Shown: positions 2,095 to 19,925, counted from the first letter of the stretch. The stretch is DNA of 64,000 nucleotides from an uncultured delta proteobacterium (GCA_963841435.1 CAWJCS010000005.1:352001-416000), one strand, 5' to 3'. Notes: a model not told the origin generated them from the sequence alone. A program made the numbers and translations.

Positions 2095-2745
2095 ATGTCG
2101 CTTGCTGGTCGGATCGGTGTGGGCAAGAAGCTGCCGCTCGGGATTGCGTTCGCTTCGCTGATGGCGGGAGCGAGCTGTGGCGGCAAGGAGGTGCCCGGAA
2201 CGTCGCAGCAGGCAGGCGATAGCGGAGGTCCGAGCCGTGGTGGGGAGGGAGGCACCGCGACGGGCGGCGCCAGCGGGAGCGGCGGGTCGGCAGCCGCAGG
2301 GAGCGGAGCTGTCGGGGGTACTCCCGGCGTGGGGCAGGGCGGGCGGGGAGGAATGCTCGGCTCGGGCGCGCTCGGTGGTGCTGGAGTCGGTGGATTCGCG
2401 GGCGTGAGCGGAGCCGGGTACGCAGGCGTCGCCGGTACGGGGGGCTACAGTGGCAGCTACTTCTCGCAAGGATGCTACGGACCGGACGACACCACCGCCT
2501 GCATGCCGGCCTCGGCGACGCCTGGCCCGCAGGACTGCATGCCAGCGACGGCGGGCGCCGGGGGCGTCGCTGGTGTCAGCGGAACGCTGCCGGAAGCAGG
2601 GACGGCTGGTGAGGGCGGCGAAGCTGGCAGCCCTGCGCTCGACTGCCCCATGTGCGGGCCGTACATGTCGTTCTACACACAGGTAGGAGGCCCCACCAGC
2701 AGCGGCGACATGTGCTGCTACTCGTACCACTGCTTCATCCGCTGA
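2095..2745 (+). CDS. Gly-rich lipoprotein with Cys-rich C-terminus
   Basis: Lipobox-like LMAGASC, long G/A/S linker, ends ...GDMCCYSYHCFIR. Confidence 0.7.
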   Translation: MSLAGRIGVGKKLPLGIAFASLMAGASCGGKEVPGTSQQAGDSGGPSRGGEGGTATGGASGSGGSAAAGSGAVGGTPGVGQGGRGGMLGSGALGGAGVGGFAGVSGAGYAGVAGTGGYSGSYFSQGCYGPDDTTACMPASATPGPQDCMPATAGAGGVAGVSGTLPEAGTAGEGGEAGSPALDCPMCGPYMSFYTQVGGPTSSGDMCCYSYHCFIR

Positions 2746-3155
2746 CGCATCGGCGGGAGGCTCGCGCGTTCGCGCACGGAGGACAGCTTGCACCGCGCAG
2801 GCGGAGGGCGGGCAGAACGCGCCAGCAACTCGCGCACTCTGGTGGCCACGCGACAAGATGAATCGCGCCGGCGCAAAAAGCCGGAGCAATCGCGCTCGCC
2901 GCCGTCGACCTGGGCACTGGGTCGCCGCGCTGAGCAGTTGCTGGTGATCCTGCGAGCGGGGCAACGCTGAACTCGCTGGAGGCGTCGTCGGGTTGTGCGA
3001 GCACAGGTCCGCTGATGAGAGCGAGTCTGAGCGATCGCTTTGCGCGAGTGTGAAGTTGATGGTTGACGAGCAATCCACGCCGGGCGTAAGAGTCTGGCCC
3101 TAGTTTGCCAGTGAAGCGGGGCGAGGGCGCTCGCGAACGAAGTGAGGAGGTTGCC

Positions 3156-5272
3156 ATGCGGAGGTGGATGACGGGATTCGTTGGTGCTAAAAATGCTATT
3201 GTGATCGCTCTCTTGTTCCCAGCCGCGTGCGCGGGCCGGGGCGACGAGGTGGGGGGGGGTGAGACAACCTCCTACACGCAAGAGGCCCTGGTGGTTCCGT
3301 TCACCCTTCCGAGGAGTCGGTGACGGAGAAGGGCGAGATCGACACCAACACTCCGGGCCCCGCTGAAATTGCTGCCGCTGTGCTCACGCCGAGCCTCGCC
3401 TCCTGTGCGACGCCGGACCCCTACGTCTTCGTGAGCTACTCTTCGAGCTCGGTGCTTCGTGCGTCCCTTTCCTCCATGGGATACTCGGGAGGCCCCCTGG
3501 CGCTTCTCCCCGAGGGCTCCCTGCCGATCACCGCGAGCTGTATCGGCAGTCTTCTTCCCGGTTACCCGCCGTCGCCGTACGGCCCCCTCTACGGCTATCC
3601 GATCCAACCGGGTGGCATCCCGTACTTGCAGCACAGCTCGGGCACCGACAACGTCATGGCGCGGTTGCCGACGGGGAACTTGCTGGAAGTGGGGGGAATC
3701 GAGCGCGCCTGCCGGGACCCGATCTCCGAAACCCTGTCCGGATGCCCCACCACCGCCCCCGCTGAGGGCTCCGCCTGCAGCACCGGCACGAACCCGCCGC
3801 GCTGCTCGTACAAGCCCATCACCCCGCCGGGTGATGGCACGGATCGAGTCTGCGGTTGTTACTTCAACCCGGCAGCGGACATCCCCGCGGTCCGTAGCGG
3901 CATGGGGCCGGACGTGACCATCACGGGCACGGCCGTGTCTGCGGCGCTCGGGCTCATCACCGTCACGAACAGCGGCGCCCTCGGCACGGCGCTGATGAGC
4001 TGGTCGTACGGCGCCCAGTCCGGGACGTCCGTGCCGATCGCGACCACCGTCACGCTCGGCACGACGGGCCAGACCGCCAATTTCCCGGCGGGAAACTACG
4101 TTGCCGGGACGACGTACAGCTGGACGCACGACACCTGGCACTGCTTGCCGAGGCGGCTCGAGGCAGGCGGCCTCGGGGTCCGACTCTCCAACGACTGCGG
4201 CGGCAGCTGGGATGCCCGGACCATCTTCCCGTACGAGCTTGGGGTCACGGGCGGGCGCGCGGTCAACCGCTTCGAGATGTCCGTGGACCCGTACGAGGAC
4301 CGCTTTTTCATCACCAGCTACGCGGGGGCGGGCGCGGCCGCCAATCGGAACGTCATCATCAAGGGCTCGCCAAAAACGGCCACGAGTCTCGGAGCCATGA
4401 GCTTCACCTTGTACCGTGACGAGGAGCGCACCGGCCTGCCGGTGGCGCTCACCACCGTACTCGACGAGAAGGCGCGCCTGCCGGGCGGGACGTTCGGCAG
4501 GTGGGTGCACGTCGTAACGGCGAGGTGCCCGGATGACCCCACGAGCGGCGCATTGGTTGACATCGAAACGCCATTTGGTCGCCGCACGGTGAATCTCAGC
4601 ATGGGCCGCTCGGCGGATTTTCGTTGCGATAACGCCGTGTCACTCCCACTCTTCAACGGCTTCACGTATCAGCGGTCCCCCAATATCACCGCCGCCGGCA
4701 TCCCCTCCGTTCCACCACGTGTTCGCGTCGTCTACCACGGCGTTCGGCAATCGGACGGCGCGCAGGTCGTGCACAGCTTCCTCGTCACCCTGTCCAGCCG
4801 CAACGACTACGACGCCGCGGCCATCCAGGCCGAGCTCGTGCACGAATTCACCATCGAGGACACGGCGGGCAGCCGCCACGTGGCGCTGCCGGCGCTGCTG
4901 GGCGTCGATGGCCTCGCAGGCTCCGACGCTCTCACCGACACGCCGATGGTGCTTCGCTACGCGCTCGCCGATGCGACCACGGTCGATGCTCGAGCGACGG
5001 TCATCTACTCGGGCCTGCGCGCATCGACGGACCTCGACCTCGGGTCGTCCAACATGAACCAGATGTTCGGAGGCGGTTGCCCCGGCGTGCTCGATCCGGT
5101 CAACGGCTACTCCGACCCCTGCTTCTTCGGCGACTACCAGTATGGAGCGTTCTTCGACAAGAGCGCCTCGGGTGAGCTCAGGTTCTTTACGCCGTACGGT
5201 GGGCAATCGCTCGCCATGCCGCCAGCAGCTGGGATCTTTGCGATTGGGACGGTCGTCGATGTGGTGCCGTAG
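3156..5272 (+). CDS. 'gene A': about 705-aa lipoprotein, Asp-box/sialidase-like propeller with a Cys-rich insert (frameshift near 3304-3306)
   Basis: Shine-Dalgarno GAGGAGG at 3144-3150; signal peptide IVIALLFPAAC then TQEAL; one added base joins it to the 650-aa ORF at 3320-5272; Asp-box LSNDCGGSW; C-terminal FFGDY. Confidence 0.75.
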
Positions 5273-5942
5273 CGCGTTGCTCACGGTTGCGCTCGCCGCC
5301 GCGACGGCGTCGGCCTGCGGGCGATCGATGTCGGGTGTGGAGCCAGCGGCCGGCGAGGGCGGGGAGCCCGCCGGTGCGACAATGGGCGGAGGGAGTCAGA
5401 GCGGCAGCGGCTCCGGCGCCGGCAATACCGCCGGCAGCTCCGAGAACAGTGGCCGGGGGGGTGCTGGCACTGCTGGAACTGGTGGCGGAGGCGGAGGAGG
5501 CTCTGCTGCCGGCGCCATGGGTGGCGGCGACGCGAGCGCAGGCTCGGCGATGAGCGGGGGCGCCGGAGCGGCGGGTGAGTCGAGTGCAGGCGAGAGCGGC
5601 GGCCTCGGTCCGCCGGGCTGCGTGCTCGGTAGCAGGTCATGTGGTTCAGGAAGCGTAGGCTTCGAGTGTCCGCCAGAGACCTACTACGATCTGCCCGAGA
5701 GCTGCTCCGGCTGCATCGACCCCACGACACAGGACCTTCAGTGTCCCACAAGGGGGTACGGCAACTGCACAGGATGTTGTTGCGAACCCACCCGCGGGGG
5801 CTGTGAAGCGCAAACCATCACTTGCGTTGGCTATCCGTCCACGCCAAACCGTTATCGATGCATCGGAGCGTACGACCCCCCTTCACCTGGCTGCGTCCTC
5901 GATACGACACTGAACGGTATCGACGCGCTCTGCTGTCCCTGA
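5259..5942 (+). CDS. 'B1' lipoprotein: Gly-rich tether plus 16-Cys domain
   Basis: ATG lies within the last codons of A (gATGtggtgccgTAG); MWCRSALLTVALAAATASAC; ends DALCCP. Confidence 0.85.
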   Translation: MWCRSALLTVALAAATASACGRSMSGVEPAAGEGGEPAGATMGGGSQSGSGSGAGNTAGSSENSGRGGAGTAGTGGGGGGGSAAGAMGGGDASAGSAMSGGAGAAGESSAGESGGLGPPGCVLGSRSCGSGSVGFECPPETYYDLPESCSGCIDPTTQDLQCPTRGYGNCTGCCCEPTRGGCEAQTITCVGYPSTPNRYRCIGAYDPPSPGCVLDTTLNGIDALCCP

Positions 5943-5948
5943 TGGGCA

Positions 5949-6297
5949 CGACGCTCTCACCGACACGCCGATGGTGCTTCGCTATGCGCTCGCCGATGCG
6001 ACCACGGTCGATGCTCGAGCGACGGTCATCTACTCGGGCCTGCGCGCATCGACGGACCTCGACCTCGGGTCGTCCAACATGAACCAGATGTTCGGAGGCG
6101 GTTGCCCCGGCGTGCTCGATCCGGTCAACGGCTACTCCGACCCCTGCTTCTTCGGCGACTACCAGTATGGAGCGTTCTTCGACAAGAGCGCCTCGGGTGA
6201 GCTCAGGTTCTTTACGCCGTACGGTGGGCAATCGCTCGCCATGCCGCCAGCAGCTGGGATCTTTGCGATTGGGACGGTCGTCGATGTCGCGCCGTAG
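5949..6297 (+). pseudogene. orphan 3' fragment of gene A (A2, type I allele)
   Basis: 5949-6287 matches 4924-5262 with one mismatch by eye; begins 6 nt after the B1 stop. Confidence 0.9.
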
Positions 6298-6988
6298 CGT
6301 CGTCATCGCGCTCGTGCTCGCTGCTGCGACGGGCGCGGGTTGCGGGCGGTCGACGTCAGGCGCGCAGCCTGCGGCCGCAGAGGGAGGAGAGACCGCTGCT
6401 GGCGGCAGGGGCGGCAGTGGAGCACCAGGCTCGGGCGGGTCCGAGGCTGGTGCAGACGACGGCCGAGGGAATCAGAGCGGGAGCGACTCGGGCGCTGGCA
6501 GCTCGCAAATGGGCGGAAGCGGTGGTGACGGAGTCGCCGGCGCTGGCGAGAGCTCTGGAGACGCTGGAGGCGGGGCAACGGCGAGCGGCGGCACTGCAGG
6601 CTCGGAGACGGGTGGAAGCGCCGGCTCGACGGGGGGCTCCGGCGCCGGCGGGGACGCCTGTCTGGGCCCGCCGGGCTGTTGGCTGCGGGGCAAGTCTTGT
6701 GGCTCAGGGGCCGTGGGCTTCGAGTGTCCTGGCTGGGAGCCTCCCGACGGCTGCTTCAACTGTCTTGATTCGTCCACGGAAGACTTCCAGTGCCCTCATG
6801 GACCACCCTGCAACATCTGCTGCTGCGAGCCCTCGCGGGGGGGGTGTGAAGACGAGGTGCCGGGGGGATGCGTGGGCTATCCGTCCACTCCCAACGCCTA
6901 TTTCTGCATCACGCCGTACGACGTGCCAGAACCCGGCTGCATATTCATCAGGACGACCGATGGTATCGACAAGGTCTGCTGCCCCTGA
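6284..6988 (+). CDS. 'B2' lipoprotein, 16-Cys domain allele
   Basis: MSRRSVVIALVLAAATGAGC; same Cys spacing as B1; ends DKVCCP. Confidence 0.85.
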   Translation: MSRRSVVIALVLAAATGAGCGRSTSGAQPAAAEGGETAAGGRGGSGAPGSGGSEAGADDGRGNQSGSDSGAGSSQMGGSGGDGVAGAGESSGDAGGGATASGGTAGSETGGSAGSTGGSGAGGDACLGPPGCWLRGKSCGSGAVGFECPGWEPPDGCFNCLDSSTEDFQCPHGPPCNICCCEPSRGGCEDEVPGGCVGYPSTPNAYFCITPYDVPEPGCIFIRTTDGIDKVCCP

Positions 6989-7014
6989 CGCACGCCATTT
7001 GCGCAGCTGCTTCG

Positions 7015-7474
7015 CGCCGCGGCCATGCAGGCGCAGCTCGTGCACGAGTTCACGCTCGAGGATACCGCCGGCAGCCGGCACATGGCGCTTCCAGCGCTGA
7101 TGGGAGTCGACGGCCTCGCCGGCTCCGATGCCCTCACCGACACGCCGATGGTCCTCCGCTACGTGCGCGCCGACCCGACGACGGTCAACGCGCGGGCGAC
7201 GGTCGTCTACTCGGGCCTTCGCCGTTCGACGGATCTCGACCTCGGATCGTCCAACTTCAGCCAGATGTTTGTAGGCGCCTGCCCGGGGATGCTCACCCAG
7301 AGCAACGGCTGGACCAATCCGTGTGCCTTCGGCGACTATGAGTACGGCGCGTTCTTCGACAAGAGCGCCTCGGGCGAGCTCAGGTTCTTCACGCCGTACG
7401 GGGGGCAGTCGCTCGCCATGCCGCCCCCGTCCGGGATCTTCGCAATCGGGACCGTGGTCGATGTGGCGCCGTAG
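7015..7474 (+). pseudogene. orphan 3' fragment of gene A (A3, type II allele)
   Basis: MQAQLVHEFTLEDTAGSRHMALP...GTVVDVAP is homologous to A from about 4813, with a divergent loop (MLTQSNGWTNPCAF). Confidence 0.9.
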
Positions 7475-8174
7475 CGCGGTCATCTCGCTCATGCTCGCCA
7501 CCGCGACGGGATCGGCCTGCGGGCGGTCAACGTCCGGAGTGGAGCCGGCGGCCGGCGAGGCAGGGGAGACGGCCAGTGGTGCGAGCGGCGGCAGAGGAGC
7601 AGCCTCCGGGGGATCCGCCGCGGGTGCGACGGGCGGTCGTGGAGGTCAAACCGGAGGCGGCTCCGGTGGCGGCGGCTCCGGGATAGGGGGGGGCTCGGGC
7701 GGTGATGGGCCCGGTGGGACTGGCGAAGTGTCCGGTTCTTCGGGAATCAGCGGGTCACCAAGTGGCGGCGGCGGTGGAGCCTCGGGCGCTGCTGCAAGTG
7801 GGGGCTCCGCGGCCGGCTCGAGTGCGGGTGAGGCTGGCGGCTTTGGTCCGCCGGGGTGCGTGCTGCGAAACAGGTCGTGTGGCTCGCAAGCGGTTGGCTT
7901 CGAATGTCCACCGGAGATCTACTACGACCCTCCCGATACTTGCACCAACTGCATCGACCCCACGATGGAGAACTTACAATGCTATCATGGGCAGCCCTGC
8001 ACACCGTGCTGTTGCGAGCCGTCCGGGGGAGGGTGTGAAGCCCAGACCGGGACCTGCGTTGGATACCCATCAACTCCGAACCTTTTGCTTTGCATCGAAC
8101 CATATGAGCCACCAGCGCAGGGGTGCATCACGCTCGGCTCCGACGATGGCGTCGAAACGGTCTGCTGCCCCTAA
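7461..8174 (+). CDS. 'B3' lipoprotein, 16-Cys domain allele
   Basis: MWRRSAVISLMLATATGSAC; ends ETVCCP. Confidence 0.85.
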   Translation: MWRRSAVISLMLATATGSACGRSTSGVEPAAGEAGETASGASGGRGAASGGSAAGATGGRGGQTGGGSGGGGSGIGGGSGGDGPGGTGEVSGSSGISGSPSGGGGGASGAAASGGSAAGSSAGEAGGFGPPGCVLRNRSCGSQAVGFECPPEIYYDPPDTCTNCIDPTMENLQCYHGQPCTPCCCEPSGGGCEAQTGTCVGYPSTPNLLLCIEPYEPPAQGCITLGSDDGVETVCCP

Positions 8175-8190
8175 ACTGAGGAATGCCCTG

Positions 8191-8805
8191 ATGTACGGCT
8201 TCACGTACGGGCGGTCCCCCAATATCACTGCCGTCGGCATCCCCTCCGTCCCGCCGCGCGTTCGCGTCGTCTACCACGGCATTCGTCCGGATGGCGCCCA
8301 GGTGGTTCACAGCTTCCTCGTCACCCTGTCGAGCCGCAACGGCTACGACGCCGCGGCCATGCAGGCGCAGCTCGTGCACGAGTTCACGCTCGAGGACACC
8401 GCCGGCAGCCGTGACATGGCGTTGCCAGCGTTGATGGGCGTGGACGGCCTCGCCGGCTCCGACGCTCTGACGGACACGCCGATGGTCCTCCGCTACGTGC
8501 GCGCCGACCCGACGACGGTCGACGCGCGGGCAACGGTCATCTACTCCGGCCTTCGCCGTTCGACGGATCTCGACCTCGGCTCGTCCAACCTGAGCCAGAT
8601 GTTCGGAGGTGCTTGCCCGGGGATGCTCACCCAAAGCAACGGCTGGACGAACCCCTGCGCCTTCGGCGACTACGAGTACGGCGCGTTCTTCGACAAGAGC
8701 GCCTCGGGTGAGCTCAGGTTCTTCACGCCGTACGGGGGGCAGTCGCTGACCATGGGCACGGCCGGTATCTATGCGATTGGGACGGTCGTCGATGTGGTGC
8801 CGTAG
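8191..8805 (+). pseudogene. orphan 3' fragment of gene A (A4, type II allele; longest)
   Basis: MYGFTYGRSPNITAVGIPSVPPRVRVVYHG... is homologous to A from about 4656 to its stop. Confidence 0.9.
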
Positions 8806-9500
8806 CGCTGTCATCACGCTCGCGCTCGCTGCTGCGACGGGGGCGGCTTGCGGCCGATCCACGTCAGGCGTGGAGCCTGCGGCCGCAGAGGGAGGGGAGA
8901 CCGGCTGCTGGCGGCAGGGGCGGCAGTGGAGCACCAGGCTCGGGCGGGTCCGATGCTGGCGCGAACGGCGGCCGAGGGAATCAGAGCGGGAGCGGCTCGG
9001 GCGCTGGCAGCTCGCAGATGGGCGGAAGCGGCGGTGGCGGAGTCGCTGGCGCCGGCGAGAGCTCTGGAGACGCTGGAGGCGGGGCAACGGCGAGCGGCGG
9101 AAATGCAGGCTCGCAGACGGGTGGAAGTGCCGGCGCGACGGGGGGCTCCGGCGCCGGCGGCGACGCCAGTCTTGGTCCGCCGGGCTGTTGGCTGCGGGGC
9201 AGGTCTTGTGGCTCAGGGGCCGTGGGCTTCGAGTGTCCTGGCTGGGAGCCTCCCGACGGCTGCTTCTACTGTCTTGATTCGTCCACGGAAGACTTCCAGT
9301 GCCCTCATGGACCACCCTGCAACATCTGCTGCTGCGAGCCATCGCGCAGTGGATGCGTGGCCGAGGGGGCTGGGGGGCCTTGCGTCGGATACCCGGCAGC
9401 GCAAAAATACTATTCCTGCATCGGGTCGTATGATCCACCTGCGTCCGGCTGCCTGGTCAGTTCGACCGTCGATGGCATCGACGCGGTCTGTTGCCCGTGA
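8792..9500 (+). CDS. 'B4' lipoprotein, 16-Cys domain allele (frameshift at 8903-8904)
   Basis: MWCRSAVITLALAAATGAAC; one extra G relative to B2 (gagaccGgctgct vs gagaccgctgct); ends DAVCCP. Confidence 0.8.
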
Positions 9501-9513
9501 CGAGCCGGGGCGA

Positions 9514-9660
9514 ACGGCCGGCAGCCGGCACATCGCGCTTCCAGCGTTGATGGGCGTGGACGGCCTCGCCGGCTCCGACGCTCTGACGGACACGCCCATG
9601 GTCCTCCGCTACGCGCGCGCCGACCCGACAACGGTCAACGCGCGGGCAACGGTCGTCTAC
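9514..9660 (+). pseudogene. orphan internal fragment of gene A (A5), cut by an ISCR remnant
   Basis: TAGSRHIALPALMGVDGLAGSDALTDTPMVLRYARADPTTVNARATVVY, then an abrupt switch to transposase DNA. Confidence 0.9.
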
Positions 9661-9984
9661 CGTCCTTTCGAGCCACTCGCGCTTGCGCAAAGAGGTCGTC
9701 CCGCTTCCGCCTCCCAGCGCATCGGTCCCGATTCGCCCTCCGCCGACTCCGCCACCGCGTCCGCGAGGTCAGCTCGAGCTGCCGCTCGTTCGGTGAGTCG
9801 CTATGCCCACCGAACGCCGCGGGCGTGTGCGCTGCGTTCGGCTACCAGCCGCAGAGGCCGGGTTCATCGACGATGCGTGCACTTTTCCCACGCGAACCTC
9901 ACCGCCCTGGGCCCCGCCTCCTCTAACGACCGCTTCGCCCGCCCAACGGCCCCGCCGTTTTCCCAGTTCGATTTTCCTTCGCGC
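9661..9984 (+). mobile_element. internally deleted ISCR/IS91 3' end with oriIS-like terminus (copy 1)
   Basis: 9661-9713 matches 14809-14861; after about 20 unrelated nt it matches about 15097-15372; ends GTTCGATTTTCCTTCGCGC. Confidence 0.9.
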
Positions 9985-10000
9985 CGCCACAACTGGCCCG

Positions 10001-10657
10001 TCACCGCCCCAACGAGACGTAGTACCCCGCCCGCAAGACGACACCGGCCGACCACGAGGCGTAATCGCGCGCGTAGGCGGCCTCCGGTGGAGGGGTGGCG
10101 ACGGCTTGTGCCGACAGGCCCGGTACGAGCGCTAGGGTAAAGTCCGAGATGACCAGAGTCATCGGAGCCTCGACGCCAGCGAAGGGTGCGTACTGTTCCT
10201 GGGTTTCGAACCCCAGACCCGCGCGCGGGGTGTCGATCGCAACCAGCATTCCAGCGAAGATACCAATCGCAGGCTCGAAGATGCCGAACCTGAAGGTTCT
10301 AAGCCCGCCAATGCCGACGCGGAAGCGCCGGTGGCTCGTCACGTCCGTCTCGCCCGACCACCCATAGCCGCCGACGACCAAGAGCTCCCAGAGTGGCGCG
10401 AAGCGCCAAGCGGCACCCGCGTCGAGCCTCCAAAAGAAGAGATTCGAGCAGCTCCGCACGGTTTCGAATTCGCTACAGGAGGGCCGGAGCTCGACCTCGC
10501 CACCTGCGTCTGCCAGGATACCAATCGCAAGACGCTCGACGGCGCGCTGGCCCTGTCGTGGGTCGCTTTGAGCCCAGGCCCGCCCTGGCAGCCAGAGGAG
10601 CCCGGCGAGACCGGACAAGGCGGCCCGCGTCAGAAAGCACGCAAGGTCGCGAGGCAC
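10001..10657 (-). CDS. putative outer-membrane beta-barrel protein
   Basis: Signal peptide ending AWA; alternating hydrophobic strands; C-terminal VVLRAGYYVSL. Confidence 0.6.
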   Translation of the reverse strand: MPRDLACFLTRAALSGLAGLLWLPGRAWAQSDPRQGQRAVERLAIGILADAGGEVELRPSCSEFETVRSCSNLFFWRLDAGAAWRFAPLWELLVVGGYGWSGETDVTSHRRFRVGIGGLRTFRFGIFEPAIGIFAGMLVAIDTPRAGLGFETQEQYAPFAGVEAPMTLVISDFTLALVPGLSAQAVATPPPEAAYARDYASWSAGVVLRAGYYVSLGR

Positions 10658-11337: not shown

Positions 11338-12399
11338 TCAGATGCAGACTCTGCTGAGCGTGGTTGCATGATGAACAACGTTGTCGGTTTCGCGTGACTC
11401 AGCGTGGGCGCTGCCCGTGTCGACTGTGTGAAACGTCCAGAAGGTCGTATTGCATGCCATTGAGCCGACTGGCGCAGTCGTACTGTGTGCCGTAAACACT
11501 TGATTTCTATTGTTTACAATGGCCCCAGTCCAGTTGGTCCAGGTAATGCCGCCCGTCCCGCAGGTCGGGCAGGTGTTGATGTGTTCGCGCCAATTGAACG
11601 TCAAATTTTGCGTACCATGATTCACGAGCGCGTAGTTCATGTCGACCACCGTTGTGAGCGTCACGAAAATGGTCCCTGCAAACGACGTGGTGGTCACTGC
11701 GCCCCCGCTGAAGCGCTGACCAGATGCGAGGAGATTCTTGAAGGATGAGGGGCCGCCGTAGAGGGTTGCGGCGCCGTTTCGGTCGTCTCCCGAAGGGGTG
11801 GAGTGCGTGCCTGTTCCGCCGACGCGGGGTTTCAGACCCCCGGGGATCATCACGTCGTATCCGGTCTGATGCCCGAGGCCGAGGACATGCCCCCACTCGT
11901 GCACGAAGACGTCACGGCCGGAGAGAGGCCCACCCACGGCCACGTCCCAGCCGCTCTCATCCGGGTTGCCGAAGAGGAGGTCGCTCGCGACCATGGGGTC
12001 CGCCTCGTCCATGTCGTTGCATCCAATGAAGCAGGTGCCCCATTGAATGACGGTGAGTCCGTTGTTGCCTCCAATCGTGGAGCGCGCTACGACTCCTGCT
12101 TCCCATTGCCCGTCGCCGTGGGTGATCACCGTATCGCTTGTGGTGCCGCTGACGTTGACGGGTGATCGCGACATCACGCGCGTATTCCACTCGGTTGAAG
12201 CATTGAAAAGGTCGGACTCCCTAGCGCCTCCGGCCGCAATGCTAGAGAGATTTTGTCGAACGTGCTCTTGGCTCGACCCGATCTTGCCCGTGCAGCCATT
12301 GCACGTGTAAAGGAACGTGAACGCCTCAGCGCGAACCGCTACTGCCAGCGTCGCGAACCCAGCGGCCGCACCAGCGACCAGTTGCTTGAGCTCGATCAT
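11338..12399 (-). CDS. secreted metzincin (matrixin/M10-like) zinc metalloprotease with CARDB-like C-terminus
   Basis: HEWGHVLGLGH, Met-turn VMIP, signal peptide ending AEA, C-terminal VDTGSAHAESRETDNV. Confidence 0.85.
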   Translation of the reverse strand: MIELKQLVAGAAAGFATLAVAVRAEAFTFLYTCNGCTGKIGSSQEHVRQNLSSIAAGGARESDLFNASTEWNTRVMSRSPVNVSGTTSDTVITHGDGQWEAGVVARSTIGGNNGLTVIQWGTCFIGCNDMDEADPMVASDLLFGNPDESGWDVAVGGPLSGRDVFVHEWGHVLGLGHQTGYDVMIPGGLKPRVGGTGTHSTPSGDDRNGAATLYGGPSSFKNLLASGQRFSGGAVTTTSFAGTIFVTLTTVVDMNYALVNHGTQNLTFNWREHINTCPTCGTGGITWTNWTGAIVNNRNQVFTAHSTTAPVGSMACNTTFWTFHTVDTGSAHAESRETDNVVHHATTLSRVCI

Positions 12400-13166
12400 T
12401 GAAGCTCTCCTGACACGGGAGTTTCGTTCCAGCGCGACCAAGTTGGTTTCGTCGAGCCAAGCGCTCCGGCAAGCCGAACGCCATCGCTGCGCAAGACTGC
12501 GCGAATTGCGTCAACCGCTTCGGAAGTCTTCAGGGTACGCGTCGAGGGCGCGGCGGCAAGCCGCGTAGCACGTTGAAATGAGAAGCCATCGAATCGCGGG
12601 CTCTGGAAAAGCGCCTCGCTCCCAAACTTTGGGCCCAATACGCCGATCGACACGACAGCGCGACCCTCGTCGCCGATCAGCATGTCTTCCCCATCTACGG
12701 ACTCAATCGAGAACCCGTAGCCAGGCACGATGGGTGACCAGAATGCCGACTTGTTCGTCAGCAGCAACAAGCAGCGTTGACCTTCGGCAAAGACGGGTGT
12801 TTCGGAGGTCGTCATGAACTGGCCGCTAGGCAAGTACCCGCCGAACACCGACAGCGTGAGCTGGCTTGCAGGGATCGAGCCCTCATGGAGCTTGTCGACG
12901 AAGAAGTGGACGTTGGTCCGCGGCCCGGTAACGTCGTCGTAGGAAAACGTGATCGTCCCTACCGTTCCTTCGACCAGCGCGGCGCCATCGACCAATTGGC
13001 GCCCCGCCGGGCTGATTGACGTTGGAATCGCGACGGCCGAGCCGTTGAACGCTGCCTTCGCATCCCGGCTGGCCAGCGATGGCAAGCCCACAGCCGCGAA
13101 GCCAACAAAAGTAGCCCCGAGCGCGCCCAATGTGGCGCCGGTTTTCCCCAGTTTACCCATACCCAT
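12396..13166 (-). CDS. secreted hypothetical protein translationally coupled to the protease
   Basis: N-terminal hydrophobic segment; ATGA overlap with the protease; LVEGTV...PVFAEGQRCLLLL. Confidence 0.75.
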   Translation of the reverse strand: MGMGKLGKTGATLGALGATFVGFAAVGLPSLASRDAKAAFNGSAVAIPTSISPAGRQLVDGAALVEGTVGTITFSYDDVTGPRTNVHFFVDKLHEGSIPASQLTLSVFGGYLPSGQFMTTSETPVFAEGQRCLLLLTNKSAFWSPIVPGYGFSIESVDGEDMLIGDEGRAVVSIGVLGPKFGSEALFQSPRFDGFSFQRATRLAAAPSTRTLKTSEAVDAIRAVLRSDGVRLAGALGSTKPTWSRWNETPVSGELQ

Positions 13167-13603: not shown

Positions 13604-15160
13604 GTGGGACACCCGGCGCACAGTTTTGGCGACGCTCGACCCCACGTTCGAGCCGATGGCTACGCGCGGCGCCGGCCGGAGGAGAATGCGCTCTACCAGA
13701 CGGTTGCCCAGAGCTGGCCCGCGTTTCACGACCGCGTTCAGGACACTGGCGGCCTGCCGAAGTTCATCGTCAGGGAGTTCGAGGAGTATCTCAAGTGCGG
13801 GATCCTCGAGCACGGCGGCCTCCACCTCGTGTGCCGGAGCTGTGGCTACTCCGAAGTCGTGGCACTCAGCTGCAAGAAGCGCGGTTTTTGCCCGTCCTGC
13901 TTGGGCCGGCGCACGGCCGACACGGCCGTGCACCTGGAAGAGCGAGTGCTGCCGGCCGTGCCCATCCGGCATTGGATCTGCTCTTTGCCTTGGGGCCTCC
14001 GGGCCCTCGCGGGCTACGACCGGCGCTTGTGCGCGCTCATCGCGAGCGCCTTTGTCGGCGAGCTCAGCCGCTCACTCAAGAGGCGAGCGAAGAAGGAGCT
14101 CCGGCTGCCGAGCATCGCCGACGCGCATCCAGGTGCCGTCGCTGCCGTGCAGCGCACTGACGGCGCGCTCCGACTCAACGTGCACTTGCACGTGCTCGCG
14201 CTCGACGGCGTGTACGTGCGTCACCAAGGGAGCGGCGAGCTTCGTTTCCACGCGCTCCTCACGCCGACCCGAGCGGACGTCGAGGACGTGGCGCGCCGGA
14301 CGGCAGCTCGCATCGAGAAGATCCTCCGAGCGAGTGGGCGCACCTTCGGTCCTGAAGAGGACGACGCTCCGCCGCCGGAGCTGACGCTCGATGAGCCCGG
14401 GCTCGCCGCTTGCTACGCCGCTGCCGCGCAGGGCATTTCGGTCAGCGGCGACCGAGCGGGCCTGCCCACGCTCAGACTCGTCTTGCCGCCCGAGCGGCCA
14501 CCTCGCGGCGCTGACACCGGCCCTCTCGCTGATGAGCCCGTCGCCGAGGTGCGCGGCATCAACGTGCACGCTCGGCAACTCGTCGACGGCCGCGATCGGC
14601 GACAACTCGAGCGGCTGTGCCGCTACATCACGCGGCCTCCCGTTGCGCAGGAGCGCCTCGAGCGGCTCGCCGACGGCCGGCTCGAGCGCAGGCTCAAGCA
14701 CGCGTGGAAGGACGGCACGCGCGCCCTCGTCCTCGAGCCCGACGACTTGATGGTCCGGCTAGTCGCCGCGGTGCCCCCGCCGTATTTTCATTTACTGCGG
14801 TATTTTGGCGTCCTTTCGAGCCACTCGCGCTTGCGCAAAGAGGTCGTCCCGCTTCCGCCTCACGACCCGGGCGCCACCGCGCCGCCGCCGGCACCCGGCG
14901 ATCAGCTCGAGCTCGAACTCGACGCCGAGAGCGACGAGCCTCCGGCCGGACGCAAGCGCTGGGCCTGGCTGCTCAGGCATGTGTTTGCGGCCGACCTGGA
15001 TACTTGCCCCCGCTGCTCGGGACCGATGCGCTGGCTGCAGGCTGCCTCCACCCAGGAAGATGCCCGCCACCTGCTCGCCCGGCTCGGGCTCGCGCCTCGC
15101 CCTCCGCCGACTCCGCCACCGCGTCCGCGAGGTCAGCTCGAGCTGCCGCTCGTTCGGTGA
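13604..15160 (+). CDS. IS91/ISCR-family rolling-circle (HUH) transposase
   Basis: Zn-binding region CGILEHG..CRSC..SCKKRGFCPSC, HUH motif NVHLHV, single catalytic Tyr in RLCRYITRP, C-terminal CPRC. Confidence 0.92.
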   Translation: MGHPAHSFGDARPHVRADGYARRRPEENALYQTVAQSWPAFHDRVQDTGGLPKFIVREFEEYLKCGILEHGGLHLVCRSCGYSEVVALSCKKRGFCPSCLGRRTADTAVHLEERVLPAVPIRHWICSLPWGLRALAGYDRRLCALIASAFVGELSRSLKRRAKKELRLPSIADAHPGAVAAVQRTDGALRLNVHLHVLALDGVYVRHQGSGELRFHALLTPTRADVEDVARRTAARIEKILRASGRTFGPEEDDAPPPELTLDEPGLAACYAAAAQGISVSGDRAGLPTLRLVLPPERPPRGADTGPLADEPVAEVRGINVHARQLVDGRDRRQLERLCRYITRPPVAQERLERLADGRLERRLKHAWKDGTRALVLEPDDLMVRLVAAVPPPYFHLLRYFGVLSSHSRLRKEVVPLPPHDPGATAPPPAPGDQLELELDAESDEPPAGRKRWAWLLRHVFAADLDTCPRCSGPMRWLQAASTQEDARHLLARLGLAPRPPPTPPPRPRGQLELPLVR

Positions 15161-15372
15161 GTCGCTATGCCCACCGAACGCCGCGGGCGTGTGCGCTGCG
15201 TTCGGCTACCAGCCGCAGAAGCCGGGTTCATCGACGATGCGTGCACTTTTCCCACGCGAACCTCACCGCCCTGGGCCCCGCCTCCTCTAACGACCGCTTC
15301 GCCCGCCCAACGGCCCCGCCGTTTTCCCGCCCAACGGCCCCGCCGTTTTCCCGGTTCGATTTTCCTTCGCGC
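13604..15372 (+). mobile_element. ISCR-like element (left terIS end not defined)
   Basis: Transposase plus a 212-nt 3' region with hairpins and a 24-bp tandem repeat (15302-15349); the right end is defined by where the three copies stop matching. Confidence 0.8.
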
Positions 15373-16336: not shown

Positions 16337-16960
16337 CTAGGTCGTGCATTCGACCACCGCAACGCAGGTATTCCCTCCAATCTTGCAGGTGGCTGCCCCA
16401 GGAGCCCCGCAAGCGCAGGCGCACGCTTCCTCAATGGTCGTGAAACACGCGTGGGCCCAGGGCAAGCTGAATGGGCAGCTCTCGCATGATGGTGCGTCAT
16501 CGACCCGCGCGCCGGAACACTCCGCGCAGATCTCGACGCACTGCTCATGGTTGCTCGTGTAGCAGACGCACTCGCTGAGACAAGTGCCGCACGATCCACA
16601 GTCTGTGCCACCTCCGCAGCTACTCGGTAGGCCCGCGTCTAGGGGGGCTACAAGGTCGCACCGACACGGCTCGAACGACCCTTGGGGCGTGCAAACTTGC
16701 TGCCCGAACCCGCCGCCAGGACAACGGCAGTCGGCGACATCCCCCTCGGCGCACTCGGGCGATTCGACGGCTCCAGCGGAGCCACCGTTGGGCGACCCCG
16801 CTGCACCTGGCGAAGTGCCGTCGGCCCCGGCCGCCGCAGTGCGCCGTGTATCGGAACGCCCGCTACATCCAAGCGCGGCGCTGGCAGCGAGGATCGCACC
16901 CGCTGCCCAGACCTCAACTTGAACTTTGGTCAATGTCCTCGATGGACCCGCATACCACAC
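16337..16960 (-). CDS. Cys-rich lipoprotein
   Basis: ILAASAALGC lipobox; more than 20 Cys; start codon uncertain. Confidence 0.7.
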   Translation of the reverse strand: MWYAGPSRTLTKVQVEVWAAGAILAASAALGCSGRSDTRRTAAAGADGTSPGAAGSPNGGSAGAVESPECAEGDVADCRCPGGGFGQQVCTPQGSFEPCRCDLVAPLDAGLPSSCGGGTDCGSCGTCLSECVCYTSNHEQCVEICAECSGARVDDAPSCESCPFSLPWAHACFTTIEEACACACGAPGAATCKIGGNTCVAVVECTT

Positions 16961-17330: not shown

Positions 17331-18245
17331 TCACTTGTTCCATTGGTTGTACCAAAAGCACTTCCCCTGGCCCTTGACGCCCGAACCGGAGCCGCCCTGG
17401 GTTGACTTCGCGTACCACTGATACCGATTGCCCGATGCCACCTGATATATCCGCACCGACTCCCCGGCGCCGGCAAACCTGCCGAAGATCCGCGTGAAGA
17501 AACACACTGCCTCATCAGAATAGATGCCAAGAGGAAGCGTATAGTTCCCCTGAACCCAGAAGTCCGAGCCGGTGAAGAGAGCGAGCTGGCCGCTGCTCGG
17601 AGTTCCGACGAACAGGGAAACGGCGCGACCAGTGATGAACCGGCCAAGGCCGTCGTGGTAGCAGTCCGCCGCATGAATGGCGGAGGCGCTGAACGCGTTG
17701 TTGGATTGCACGACCTGCGTATTCTCCCCGGAGCCGTTCGTCCCACCGGGGCCCGGCCACCACCGCAGCACCGTCGCGGCGTCGCCCCACCAGGCGGTGT
17801 AGTTGGTATCCGTGTCGCACGACCCATTCGCGGTCGCGATTGCGCTTATGTTGTGAGTCGAAATCCAGACTTCATCGTTCACGCCATCACCAGTGAAACA
17901 GGAACGGGCAACGCACCGTGCCTGCGCGACCCCGGCGCCTGAGTAGGCACGATTCACGACCCACCAATAGCCATCGGACTGAACCTCGACACCCAGGCCC
18001 GTGTCGTACCAAGAGTCAGGCTGCTCACCGTCGAAATTCCCAGATGCCATGGTCAGCCAGCAGAAGTGTGTGTCCAGAGGCTTCATCTTCTTGGGCAACC
18101 CCGCCTCATAGATGGTCTGCGTGGCCGTGATGCATGACGAAGGGAGCGCCTCCCGCGTTTGCGCAACGGACTCCTCGTTTCCAGGGTCAACGGCGCACCC
18201 GGAGAGCACCGCCGCGGCGACAATCCAGCCGTGTTCGAGCTTCAT
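17331..18245 (-). CDS. lipoprotein with repeated CW/CF-x-T-x-x-x-G-x-F-x-G beta-rich domains
   Basis: Shine-Dalgarno AGGAGGAGG; AAAVLSGC lipobox; TREAL motif; FCWLTMASGNFDG and VCFFTRIFGRFAG repeats. Confidence 0.8.
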   Translation of the reverse strand: MKLEHGWIVAAAVLSGCAVDPGNEESVAQTREALPSSCITATQTIYEAGLPKKMKPLDTHFCWLTMASGNFDGEQPDSWYDTGLGVEVQSDGYWWVVNRAYSGAGVAQARCVARSCFTGDGVNDEVWISTHNISAIATANGSCDTDTNYTAWWGDAATVLRWWPGPGGTNGSGENTQVVQSNNAFSASAIHAADCYHDGLGRFITGRAVSLFVGTPSSGQLALFTGSDFWVQGNYTLPLGIYSDEAVCFFTRIFGRFAGAGESVRIYQVASGNRYQWYAKSTQGGSGSGVKGQGKCFWYNQWNK

Positions 18246-18518
18246 CTCATACCTCCTCCTGCCTGCCGGCACATGGCCTCAGGGTCTCGGGGAGTCTACT
18301 CAGCGTGCGATGGTCCGTCTGTTGGAAACGGGTGCGGCTCTTCCGCCAGCAGAAACCAGAGCAAATCCGGACCACTGAGCACCCAGTCCGATTCGATCGG
18401 GCGCCGTGGTCGGCGGCGTGCTGGTGGTGTCGGGTCTCACGGCGTTGCTCCAGCTCTAAGGGGGCGCGGTCCCGATACGCTCGAACACCCCGTCACCCTT
18501 GGTCACGAGGACGACGTC

Positions 18519-18832
18519 CCCAGGAAGATGCCCGCCACCTGCTCGCCCGGCTCGGGCTCGCGCCTCGCCCTCCGCCGACTCCGCCACCGCGTCCGCGAGG
18601 TCAGCTCGAGCTGCCGCTCGTTCGGTGAGTCGCTATGCCCACCGAACGCCGCGGGCGTGTGCGCTGCGTTCGGCTACCAGCCGCAGAGGCCGGGTTCATC
18701 GACGATGCGTGCACTTTTCCCACGCGAACCTCACCGCCCTGGGCCCCGCCTCACCGCTTCGCCCGCCCAACGGCCCCGCCGTTTTCCCGCCCAACGGCCC
18801 CGCCGTTTTCCCAGTTCGATTTTCCTTCGCGC
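18519..18832 (+). mobile_element. ISCR 3' end with oriIS-like terminus (copy 3)
   Basis: Matches 15051-15372 apart from an 8-nt deletion (ctctaacg) and a few substitutions. Confidence 0.9.
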
Positions 18833-19118
18833 CGCCCGGCGCCCGAACGCATTCTTACCTTCCGCACGGTCATGTCTTGAGCGCGATGTCTCGAAGTCGG
18901 CTGGCGAGGTCGTCGCGATACTGCTCGAACTCGGTTCGAGTCAGCGGCTTCAGCATCTCCTTCCGCGCAACCCGGGGCGAAGCATGGGGGCGCGGCCGCT
19001 GTTCCGGTACCGGCGTCGAACTTTCCAAGCAGGGGTGCTGGCTCGGTCGATGGGTTCATGCGAAACTGCCGACTACACCTCTGCTCATGGCGTTTGTCCT
19101 CCCGCACCGGCCAAGTCG

Positions 19119-19925
19119 ATGAACGTGAACGGAACCATACTCTTGACGCGCAAGGCGCTCGTGACCCGAAAGTTCGGTGCAGAGGCATGGCATGGGCTAT
19201 TTCGGGACACGGCCCTCAACCACCACTGCTTCCGCCGGCCGATCACCGGGAACAGCAACGTTCCGCTCGGCGATTTCCTCGCGTTCCACGACGAGCTCGT
19301 TCGGCGCTTCTACCCTGACGGCAAGCAGGGGCTGCTGGAGCTCGGCGCAGAGGCAGCGCGCTGGGTCCACGTTGACGGTCCGCTCAAGCACTACATCGCG
19401 GACCCTGACATCAATTCGTTGCTGGGGACCATGTTAACGCTTTGGCAGCAGTACTTTCCAGACGCCGGCGTTCGCTGCGAGGCGAGCCTCAGCGATGGCG
19501 GGCTGGAATACAGAGTTTACGATCTTCCAGCGTGGCACCCGTACTTCGAGCACCTCGTGGTCGGCTACCAAAAAGCGCTGCTGGAAATCTACTGCGCGAA
19601 CCCGGTCTCGACTCATCGCCTGACCGGGGGACGCGGGCGGGCCTATGGCTACTTGCTCGCGACGGATCCGCTGGCGGGCGCCGCGGTTTCCGAGCCCGGA
19701 GTCCGGAAACCGCGCCAGCTGCGAACACCGAAACGCATTACCGAGCGCGAGCTGGAAGTCTTGCGGTTCGTCGGCACCGGGAAGACCAACCGCGAGATCG
19801 CGTTCCTGCTCGGCATTTCCGAGAAGACCGTCGAGCACCACGTTACTCACGCCTACGACAAGCTCGGCCTCTACAGCCGCGTCGGGGCGGCGTCCTGGTT
19901 GGCAGAGCAAGGGCTCGCTGACTGA
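19119..19925 (+). CDS. LuxR-type HTH regulator with a myxobacterial N-terminal sensor-like domain
   Basis: C-terminal ITERELEVLRFVGTGKTNREIAFLLGISEKTVEHHVTHAYDKLG; N-terminus resembles DUF2378/TIGR02265-like proteins. Confidence 0.8.
   Translation: MNVNGTILLTRKALVTRKFGAEAWHGLFRDTALNHHCFRRPITGNSNVPLGDFLAFHDELVRRFYPDGKQGLLELGAEAARWVHVDGPLKHYIADPDINSLLGTMLTLWQQYFPDAGVRCEASLSDGGLEYRVYDLPAWHPYFEHLVVGYQKALLEIYCANPVSTHRLTGGRGRAYGYLLATDPLAGAAVSEPGVRKPRQLRTPKRITERELEVLRFVGTGKTNREIAFLLGISEKTVEHHVTHAYDKLGLYSRVGAASWLAEQGLAD

Follow-up and report, generated by a model that had tools for sequence, protein, structure and literature searches.

An orphan-cassette array in a very rare pair of predicted lipoproteins, outside any recognisable toxin system

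How does a bacterial gene come to be followed by a string of its own truncated 3' ends, each carrying its own version of a small second gene? The question is raised by positions 3156-9660 of a 64,000-nucleotide stretch of DNA from an uncultured delta proteobacterium (GCA_963841435.1, CAWJCS010000005.1:352001-416000; hereafter the window), in which a gene for a large predicted surface protein, here called A, is followed by repeated units that consist of an A fragment and a small lipoprotein gene, B. On the evidence of its sequence, the locus is an orphan-cassette array that belongs to no recognisable toxin system and is built on a very rare, uncharacterised pair of predicted lipoproteins. The account of its origin that we favour, and to which we give an even chance of being right, is that different versions of the B cassette built up over time in a lipoprotein pair that is not a toxin system and were shuffled anew by recombination, much as in the orphan arrays of Rhs, CDI and T6SS loci, and that the copy in the window is degraded or silent. 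The array and its boundaries are made up of the following features, with positions counted from the first letter of the window.

3156-3323, plus strand: 5' remnant of A, a 55-codon open reading frame (ORF) with a lipoprotein signal (MRRWMT...LFPAAC/AGRG) and 27 further residues, closed by TGA at 3321-3323
3251-3259, plus strand: poly-G run (G9) inside the signal remnant, forming the Gly-Gly-Gly codons of the family motif VGGGE
3320-5272, plus strand: body of A, 650 codons, from ORF reading and unit-by-unit alignment
5259-5942, plus strand: B1, 227 amino acids, with its ATG 14 nt inside the end of A and a Cys-rich domain that ends CCP
5949-6297, plus strand: A2 fragment, A residues about 535-650, 99% identical to the 3' end of the lead copy (A1), frame intact
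6284-6988, plus strand: B2, 234 amino acids, a protein identical to the first B of a sister locus on C6
about 7002 or 7015 to 7474, plus strand: A3 fragment, A residues about 498-650, with clear homology from 7015
7461-8174, plus strand: B3, 237 amino acids
8195-8805, plus strand: A4 fragment, A residues about 446-650, with indels relative to A1 that are in frame
8792-9500, plus strand: B4, split by a 1-nt insertion near 8903/8904
9514-9660, plus strand: A5 fragment, A residues about 515-563, truncated on both sides
9661-9964, plus strand: 3'-end remnant of an IS91-family element, which cuts off the array after A5

A direct-repeat search returned repeat families of four to five copies spaced 1025, 1177, 1334 and 1116 nt apart. 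A comparison of the region with itself, which the first-pass annotation had called for, was run by BLAST over 3000-10200 and also brings out the array, with alignments of 1.0-1.2 kb at 71-93% identity and E values that range from 0 at best to 1e-38. The repeats are thus genuine and greatly exceed what chance would produce. Both analyses recover the unit order A-B1-A2-B2-A3-B3-A4-B4-A5 that had been proposed, and the repeats and the unit alignment place the starts of the fragments at A coordinates 4924, 4813, 4656 and 4862, as had been claimed. The B stops (5942, 6988, 8174 and 9500) are followed by the next fragment after 6, 26 (or about 13), 20 and 13 nt, respectively, in agreement with the earlier figure of about 6-26 nt. 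In every unit the ATG of B overlaps the end of A, 14 nt inside it. No A fragment contains an internal stop, and all four of the longer fragments keep their frame. In B4, the signal peptide is in the frame of one ORF (8771-9277) and the Cys domain in that of another (9018-9500). A scan of 2700-10100 turned up neither a promoter-like site nor, on the plus strand, a terminator-like one, although such a scan has little power at the 68% GC of this genome. We also observed that the B3-A4 junction (8176-8194) holds GAGGA, 8 nt and then an ATG (8192) that is in frame with A4 and sits exactly at the junction; the potential product from this ATG has 204 amino acids and starts MYGFTYGRSPN.

This is the layout of the orphan modules of Rhs, contact-dependent inhibition (CDI) and MafB loci, to which the first-pass annotation had likened the array, and it is found in four units in the window, in one at the sister locus and in at least five on C3. 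According to PMC3967940 and PMC5361080, Rhs, CdiA and MafB loci likewise have a full gene followed by 5'-truncated 3' fragments with differing starts, each with its own small gene. In the same accounts, these loci share with ours a mosaic in which the 5' part is constant and the 3' part has diverged, with repeats that can recombine with the main gene. The likeness ends at the proteins. A lacks RHS/YD, FHA and Maf domains as well as a toxin domain; its C-terminus is conserved across the family as part of a predicted propeller, whereas the downstream B is the diversified element; and B appears to be an exported Cys-rich lipoprotein rather than a cytoplasmic immunity protein, with no apparent fixed pairing between A tail and B.

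Neither A nor B matches any Pfam or NCBIfam family at E<=1, which bears out the earlier statement that no toxin domain is recognisable. Five full-length relatives of A match no Pfam or NCBIfam family either, and a profile search of solved structures with A returned nothing at E<=1. From an alignment of 38 relatives, AlphaFold2 gave an all-beta model for the body of A, with a predicted local distance difference test score (pLDDT) of 82 and a predicted TM-score (pTM) of 0.81. It superposes on the seven-bladed Photorhabdus lectins PLL and PHL (VIA-align Z 21-24, root-mean-square deviation 3.4-3.9 A over about 305 residues), nearly as well on generic WD40-type propellers (Z 19-22) and, by Foldseek, on propeller sialidases (E 4e-6, probability 1.0, TM-score 0.3-0.4); sequence identity to the matched propeller structures is 7-11%. 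The body of A is thus predicted to fold as a six- or seven-bladed beta-propeller of the lectin or sialidase kind, with its C-terminal 380 residues modelled as propeller blades and fragments A2-A5 corresponding to the last 1.5-3 blades. A also holds a motif, SNDCGGSW, that is like the Asp box and that we take to fit the Asp-box consensus. It resembles the PLL/PHL lectins and the propeller sialidases and glycosidases in this motif and in its predicted fold, and differs from them in its large insertions and a Cys-rich region. In an alignment of eight family members, the homology of A extends to the last residues (...VDVxP), and no variable toxin module takes the place of the C-terminus. Within the tail, variation is greatest in a loop between two cysteines, whose length varies across the family and whose model confidence is low (pLDDT<50 at residues 588-595).

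The B proteins consist of a lipoprotein signal, a Gly/Ser-rich linker of about 90 residues and a domain of 107-111 amino acids with conserved cysteines that ends CCP. B1 is 53-59% identical to the other B copies at the amino acid level. A structure prediction for B was unusable (pLDDT 41, pTM 0.21), and a word-indexed search with the Cys domain returned no relative outside this genome.

Full-length relatives of A have about 870-980 amino acids and comprise a signal peptide, an N-terminal domain (N-domain) of about 290 residues and then the body. The set includes three paralogues of the same genome, which carry a lipobox, and the metagenome proteins P0002, P0004, P0007 and P0011. Compared with these, the lead copy in the window is not the one full gene starting at 3156 that had been described: signal and body are out of frame with each other, and the N-domain is missing. 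The frame of the body is closed by a TGA at 3260-3262 and is open only from 3263, with GTG 3320 as its first start codon. The signal remnant aligns with the N-terminus of the C6:172667 paralogue as far as "PF(T/S)LP", and the match is taken up again, by the body, at the counterpart of "LP(T/S)E(S/E)V"; together with the missing N-domain, these match points identify the window gene as a derivative with an internal deletion and a broken frame. GTG 3320 shares bases with the stop before it (GTGA) and has GAGGAG 3 nt upstream, and we conjecture that a protein without a signal could arise by re-initiation there. The sister locus has G11 where the window has G9 (L021, about 1480-1490), with about 500 nt on either side otherwise identical, a difference that may reflect a hypermutable homopolymer or a sequencing error. 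A phase switch in this run that joins the signal peptide to A was considered and ruled out, since in the frame of A the run is succeeded by the TGA at 3260-3262, so that no run length can join the two ORFs. No slippery heptamer was seen in 3263-3320.

The N-domain missing from the window copy is common elsewhere as a module (1431 hidden Markov model (HMM) matches at E<=1e-3). Among the relatives scanned, in sets of 47 and 26, DUF7305 exceeds its 27-bit cut-off in 8 of 47 and 1 of 26; RHS- or Tc-like proteins begin with the domain in 6 cases of 26 and in 1 of 47; and peptidases are fused to it in 7 of 47, with single cases of lectin, VWA, propeller, TSP3 repeats and SpvB among the 47. The idea that the N-domain marks polymorphic toxins was therefore dropped, as the wider scan shows peptidase, lectin, VWA and other fusions. 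The N-terminal 330 residues of the C3 paralogue match no Pfam family at E<=0.1, DUF7305 included; since only relatives linked by HMM pass the cut-off, the connection to DUF7305 and an ice-binding-like beta-helix is indirect. On these sequence comparisons, the N-domain appears to be a general extracellular, adhesin-like module.

The A-B pair is present at five loci in the genome, three of which carry arrays of A fragments and B genes, and three of the five keep an intact full-length A with a signal peptide. All 19 matches of a B profile to the genome fall in or beside these A loci. The sister locus (C6:194051-197869) consists of A, a B whose protein is that of window B2, an A fragment that differs from window A3 at 2 of 402 nt, and a frameshifted B. 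On C3, an A that is about 40% identical to window A is followed by a B and at least five further units, whose A fragments are the last 162, 164, 75, 50 and 24 residues. The first three of these fragments have one common junction and a period of about 1290 nt, and the 183-nt spacer after each of the first three B stops begins, by eye, with a degenerate piece of A. On C4, the second B is truncated and is preceded by only about five codons of A tail. The C6:172667 locus has two divergent B genes and no A fragment. Mobile or accessory genes were observed at two of these loci. A PIN-domain (VapC-like) gene (Pfam PIN 3e-13; C3:381258-382010, L018:762-1511, minus strand), with a small upstream ORF, sits in the middle of the C3 array, between the third and fourth units. 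IS66 Orf2 and IS66 transposase genes lie directly after the truncated B on C4 (C4:557415-559000, L019:4416-6000), with a weak B-like match that contains stop codons beyond them (C4:559810-559929).

The family is scarce. A word-indexed search with the A body gave 4 matches, and an exhaustive search gave 38 representatives at E<=1e-30. A search of relatives, as the first-pass annotation had proposed, detected the A family in 0 of 24 genomes of the same genus, 0 of 16 of the same order and 0 of 400 sampled from the phylum. A conserved-pattern search of genome contigs gave 18 stretches, none of them a relative. Tail-only ORFs of 100-227 amino acids account for 17 of the best 150 matches to the A profile, two of them from this genome; 10 were read and 7 of these start with M. 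The host is a soil myxobacterium, as judged from 24 MYXO-CTERM matches in its genome and none in 14 control genomes. The MYXO-CTERM signal is not known from outside the phylum. One such signal (24.8 bits, above the cut-off) lies in the window itself, at 25-120 on the plus strand, where it ends an ORF that enters from the left.

Comparison of the copies reveals a mosaic. Between 2920 and 4177 the window does not differ from the sister locus (100% identity) except in the poly-G run and in a patch at 3338-3457; from 4178 on, the identity is 57-92%. The boundary near 4178 separates alleles and not unrelated domains, so that the sharp boundary of polymorphic toxins is not seen here. The tails of A1 and A2 are 99% identical, yet B1 and B2 differ at a synonymous substitution rate (dS) above 1, with the break at the B start codon; the two tails of the sister locus are 96% identical. 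B2 and B4 have, together with the sister locus's distal B, a common N-terminal half of the Cys domain (dS<=0.08) but different C-terminal halves (dS>1), and the Cys domains of B1, B2 and B3 differ from one another at dS>1 across their length. Window and sister locus share the B2-A3 junction base for base, and in the window the extra unit (B1) precedes this junction, which fits the earlier suggestion that the newest allele lies next to A. Also in line with what had been noted, the 3' part of A (81-99% amino acid identity, dS 0.02-0.67) is more conserved than B (dS>1). Only two or three types of A tail, 81-83% identical, occur here; on C3, B1 is distinct from B2 and B3 although their tails are almost alike.

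The fragments bear the mark of purifying selection. Over 134 codons, window A3 and A4 differ by 25 synonymous and 7 non-synonymous changes (p=2.7e-10 against neutrality), and the ratio of non-synonymous to synonymous rates (dN/dS) is 0.05-0.22 for all pairs of A fragments and 0.11-0.19 on C3. This synonymous bias, the open frames and the in-frame indels of A4 argue that the fragments did not decay in place; they may have diverged inside working genes, have been refreshed by conversion, or be translated. The B alleles, with dN/dS of 0.08-0.35 at dS>1, appear to be old and constrained. A dN/dS of 0.14-0.18 over A codons 1-300 was initially read as selection on the truncated gene and was withdrawn: the differences are clustered at 3338-3457 and after 4178, and with the rest 100% identical they were imported by recombination.

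How might such a locus have been built? In the scheme that we favour, full-length A would be an outer-envelope lipoprotein with an adhesin-like beta-helix N-domain and a lectin-like beta-propeller, and B a second lipoprotein that presents a disulphide-rich knob on a long flexible Gly/Ser linker. Because the start of B and the end of A overlap by 14 nt, any working B that is transferred brings some A tail along. This tail would supply the region in which translation of B starts and is probably a leader ORF for translational coupling, and the ORFs of the fragments may be kept open through this coupling. Each unit of A tail and B would have been added by a homologous crossover in A and an illegitimate join just past the B stop, through homology-facilitated illegitimate recombination or unequal exchange, with the older units shifted downstream; repeated additions of this kind would lead to the different starts of the fragments and to the extra B1 before the junction shared with the sister locus. 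Homology-facilitated illegitimate recombination has been proposed for immunity arrays of type VI secretion (T6SS) and for strings of Rhs orphans (PMC5361080). In Salmonella, a comparable route leads to the expression of an Rhs orphan (PMC3967940). The repeated A tails would then offer homology for gene conversion or deletion between units and between sister loci, and the outcome would be a reservoir of old, selectively maintained B variants together with variants of the A tail. We infer that the diversity of B is what is selected and that A and B act together in envelope recognition or adhesion. The copy in the window may be degraded or silent, given an A that lacks its N-domain and has its signal out of frame, a frameshifted B4 and a distal end cut by IS91. 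A bolder version, which we consider improbable, would make the pair a polymorphic surface system of myxobacteria, new to science, with B as its specificity determinant. The units of A tail and B would form a switchable reservoir, in which deletion or conversion of units through their repeated A tails alters the B and the A tail that are made, and with them the identity or adhesion specificity of the cell; orphan Bs, translated by way of their leader ORFs, would broaden the set that is recognised or tolerated.

Several observations weigh against the accumulation of B cassettes in a working lipoprotein pair. The deletion that broke the lead A is present with the same junction at the sister locus, so that A is broken at both, and the window copy may do nothing and may be degenerate. 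Frameshifts are found in two of the six B copies of these two loci (B4 and the distal C6 copy, which has one extra base). B2 follows tail type I in the window and tail type II on C6, which suggests that A tail and B are not a fixed cognate pair and weakens the case for a specific contact between them. A without a downstream B occurs at four metagenome loci from two organisms (full-length in L037 and L038, truncated in L039 and L040). The common junction and period of the first C3 units can be explained by plain unequal crossing-over without incoming DNA, and the tail-only ORFs of other genomes and metagenomes may in part be genes cut by contig ends. Finally, the order of events and the turnover of units are deduced from the loci of this one genome. 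Of the orphan-module interpretation as it had been put forward, the layout and the unit order stand, the intact lead gene does not, and a role in recognition, in immunity or as a receptor decoy is putative.

Two further characterised systems are close to this array. In Vibrio cholerae, according to Kirchberger et al. 2017 (PMC5361080), T6SS effector-immunity arrays likewise retain downstream genes through successive insertions, by a homologous and an illegitimate crossover and later homologous shuffling, and their alleles resemble those paired with full genes elsewhere, as B2 does here at two loci. Full-length A differs in having a Sec/lipoprotein signal, and the roles of A as effector and B as immunity protein are putative; no T6SS or other delivery gene was recognised among the ORFs inspected in window positions 1-22000, where no search was aimed at T6SS components. 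The lipoprotein toxin system SitA/SitI (Vassallo et al. 2017, PMC5562445) resembles our pair in its myxobacterial host, in the small gene directly downstream and in the lipobox of full-length A, which lacks Lys at +2 and by the rule given in that source predicts an outer-membrane location. According to the same paper, the C-terminus of SitA is a nuclease domain that varies, and the relatives of SitI are immunity families of the cytoplasm such as SUKH, whereas A ends in a conserved, predicted propeller with no match to a nuclease family and B is itself a lipoprotein with no family match.

We therefore considered whether A could be an envelope-acting effector, for example a propeller glycosidase passed from cell to cell, with B as its periplasmic or outer-membrane lipoprotein inhibitor and the array as a set of orphan immunity genes against the A alleles of neighbours. 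Many immunity proteins against effectors that act in the periplasm are lipoproteins. The apparent export of B as a lipoprotein, its old and diverse alleles, the glycoside hydrolases and sialidases among the fold matches of A and the RHS- or Tc-like proteins headed by its N-domain are consistent with this view, as is the layout, which is that of the strings of orphan effector tails and immunity genes described in PMC5361080. We nevertheless think it unlikely: no toxin or hydrolase family, and no profile from a solved structure, matches A; the fold match is to propellers in general at 9-10% identity; A stays homologous to its last residue where a variable toxin module would be expected; its N-domain is as often fused to peptidases, and also to lectin and VWA domains; and the pairing is loose, with A lacking B in two other organisms and B2 standing behind two tail types. 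It is likewise doubtful that the array is neutral debris, decaying and with no present function, left where segments of an accessory module of two genes were duplicated and partly deleted among abundant mobile elements. The broken A without its N-domain, the G9/G11 difference between otherwise identical copies, the frameshifted B4 and distal sister-locus B, the IS91 remnant, IS66 genes and PIN toxin gene that end or interrupt the arrays, and the absence of the family from all the genus, order and phylum genomes examined would be expected of such debris. It would not be expected, however, that fragments and B copies differ mainly synonymously, that the four longer fragments are in frame with A4 indels in multiples of 3, that the layout arose independently in a paralogue only 40% identical, or that three of five loci keep an intact full-length A with its signal peptide.

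Antigenic variation of the pilE/pilS kind offers another model, in which 5'-truncated A tails serve as donors that convert the 3' end of an expressed A and alter the disulphide loop of its propeller, with B as a passenger. In pilE/pilS, stacked, promoterless, 5'-truncated 3' copies lie near a surface-protein gene and a variable stretch lies between two cysteines; here too the most variable part of the tail is the low-confidence Cys-Cys loop, the tail of each full gene is close to the fragment downstream (99% and 96% in the window and the sister locus), and the two A genes differ, apart from the patch at 3338-3457, only from about 4178 on. Yet each cassette of our array carries a complete second gene, the diversity of A tails is low, with their two or three types at 81-83% identity exceeded by far by the diversity of B, and on C3 the tails barely differ while B1 is unlike B2 and B3. 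We regard this model as very unlikely. It is more improbable still, to the point of being exceedingly so, that the array is an artefact of collapsed or mis-joined repeats. The repeats are 1.0-1.3 kb long, and the only independent data are soil-metagenome contigs over the region, pieces of 151-392 nt at a depth of 2-3, none of which spans a whole unit. Two of them (2.6-2.8x) show other joints, one from 7864 to 9196, which leads from the B3 linker to the B4 Cys domain, and one from 8812 to 5385, which leads from the A4/B4 boundary into a linker like that of B1; such joints may come from array recombinants in the population, from the locus of a relative or from assembly chimeras. However, the units differ by 7-27%, every junction is unique, no perfect repeat is longer than about 335 nt, the assembly consists of 6 contigs of 0.4-1.9 Mb and the layout is seen at three loci, and misassembly is unlikely because all units are distinct. 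A further soil-metagenome contig, of 175 nt, crosses the B4-A5 junction without a difference, although the run may be the source sample and not independent.

The array is followed in the window by mobile elements and further exported proteins. An intact transposase gene of the IS91 family, of the rolling-circle type, lies at 13604-15160 on the plus strand (Y2_Tnp 4e-22, Zn_Tnp_IS91 2e-16), and the remnant that ends the array is a copy of its 3' end: 9661-9713 corresponds to 14809-14861 (100% identity) and 9733-9964 to 15097-15328 (99.6%). A second partial copy of the IS91 3' end lies at about 18565-18836, in front of a gene for a LuxR-type regulator (18159-19925). At 16337-16960 on the minus strand, a further lipoprotein (...AASAALGC/SGRS) combines a Gly/Ser/Ala-rich linker with a Cys-rich domain of another kind; no Pfam family matches it, and by the B profile search its sequence is unrelated to B. 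The minus strand at 11338-12441 encodes a secreted protein with the zinc-metallopeptidase motif HEWGHVLGLGH, with a weak match to Matrixin (2e-4, below the cut-off), in a stretch of lower GC content (58-62%, compared with 66-71% in the array).

Orphan-cassette arrays have so far been a hallmark of toxin-immunity loci. Here the same layout and the same signatures of recombination occur without a recognisable toxin in a predicted two-lipoprotein module, and it is the small gene downstream that has diversified. An orphan array alone should not be read as a toxin locus. The family is very rare and yet amplified to five loci in this genome, which makes it the natural place for its study. If functional, the module would suggest that social soil bacteria possess polymorphic envelope determinants of a new class, with a defined pair, a propeller and a Cys-rich knob, for recognition, adhesion or antagonism.

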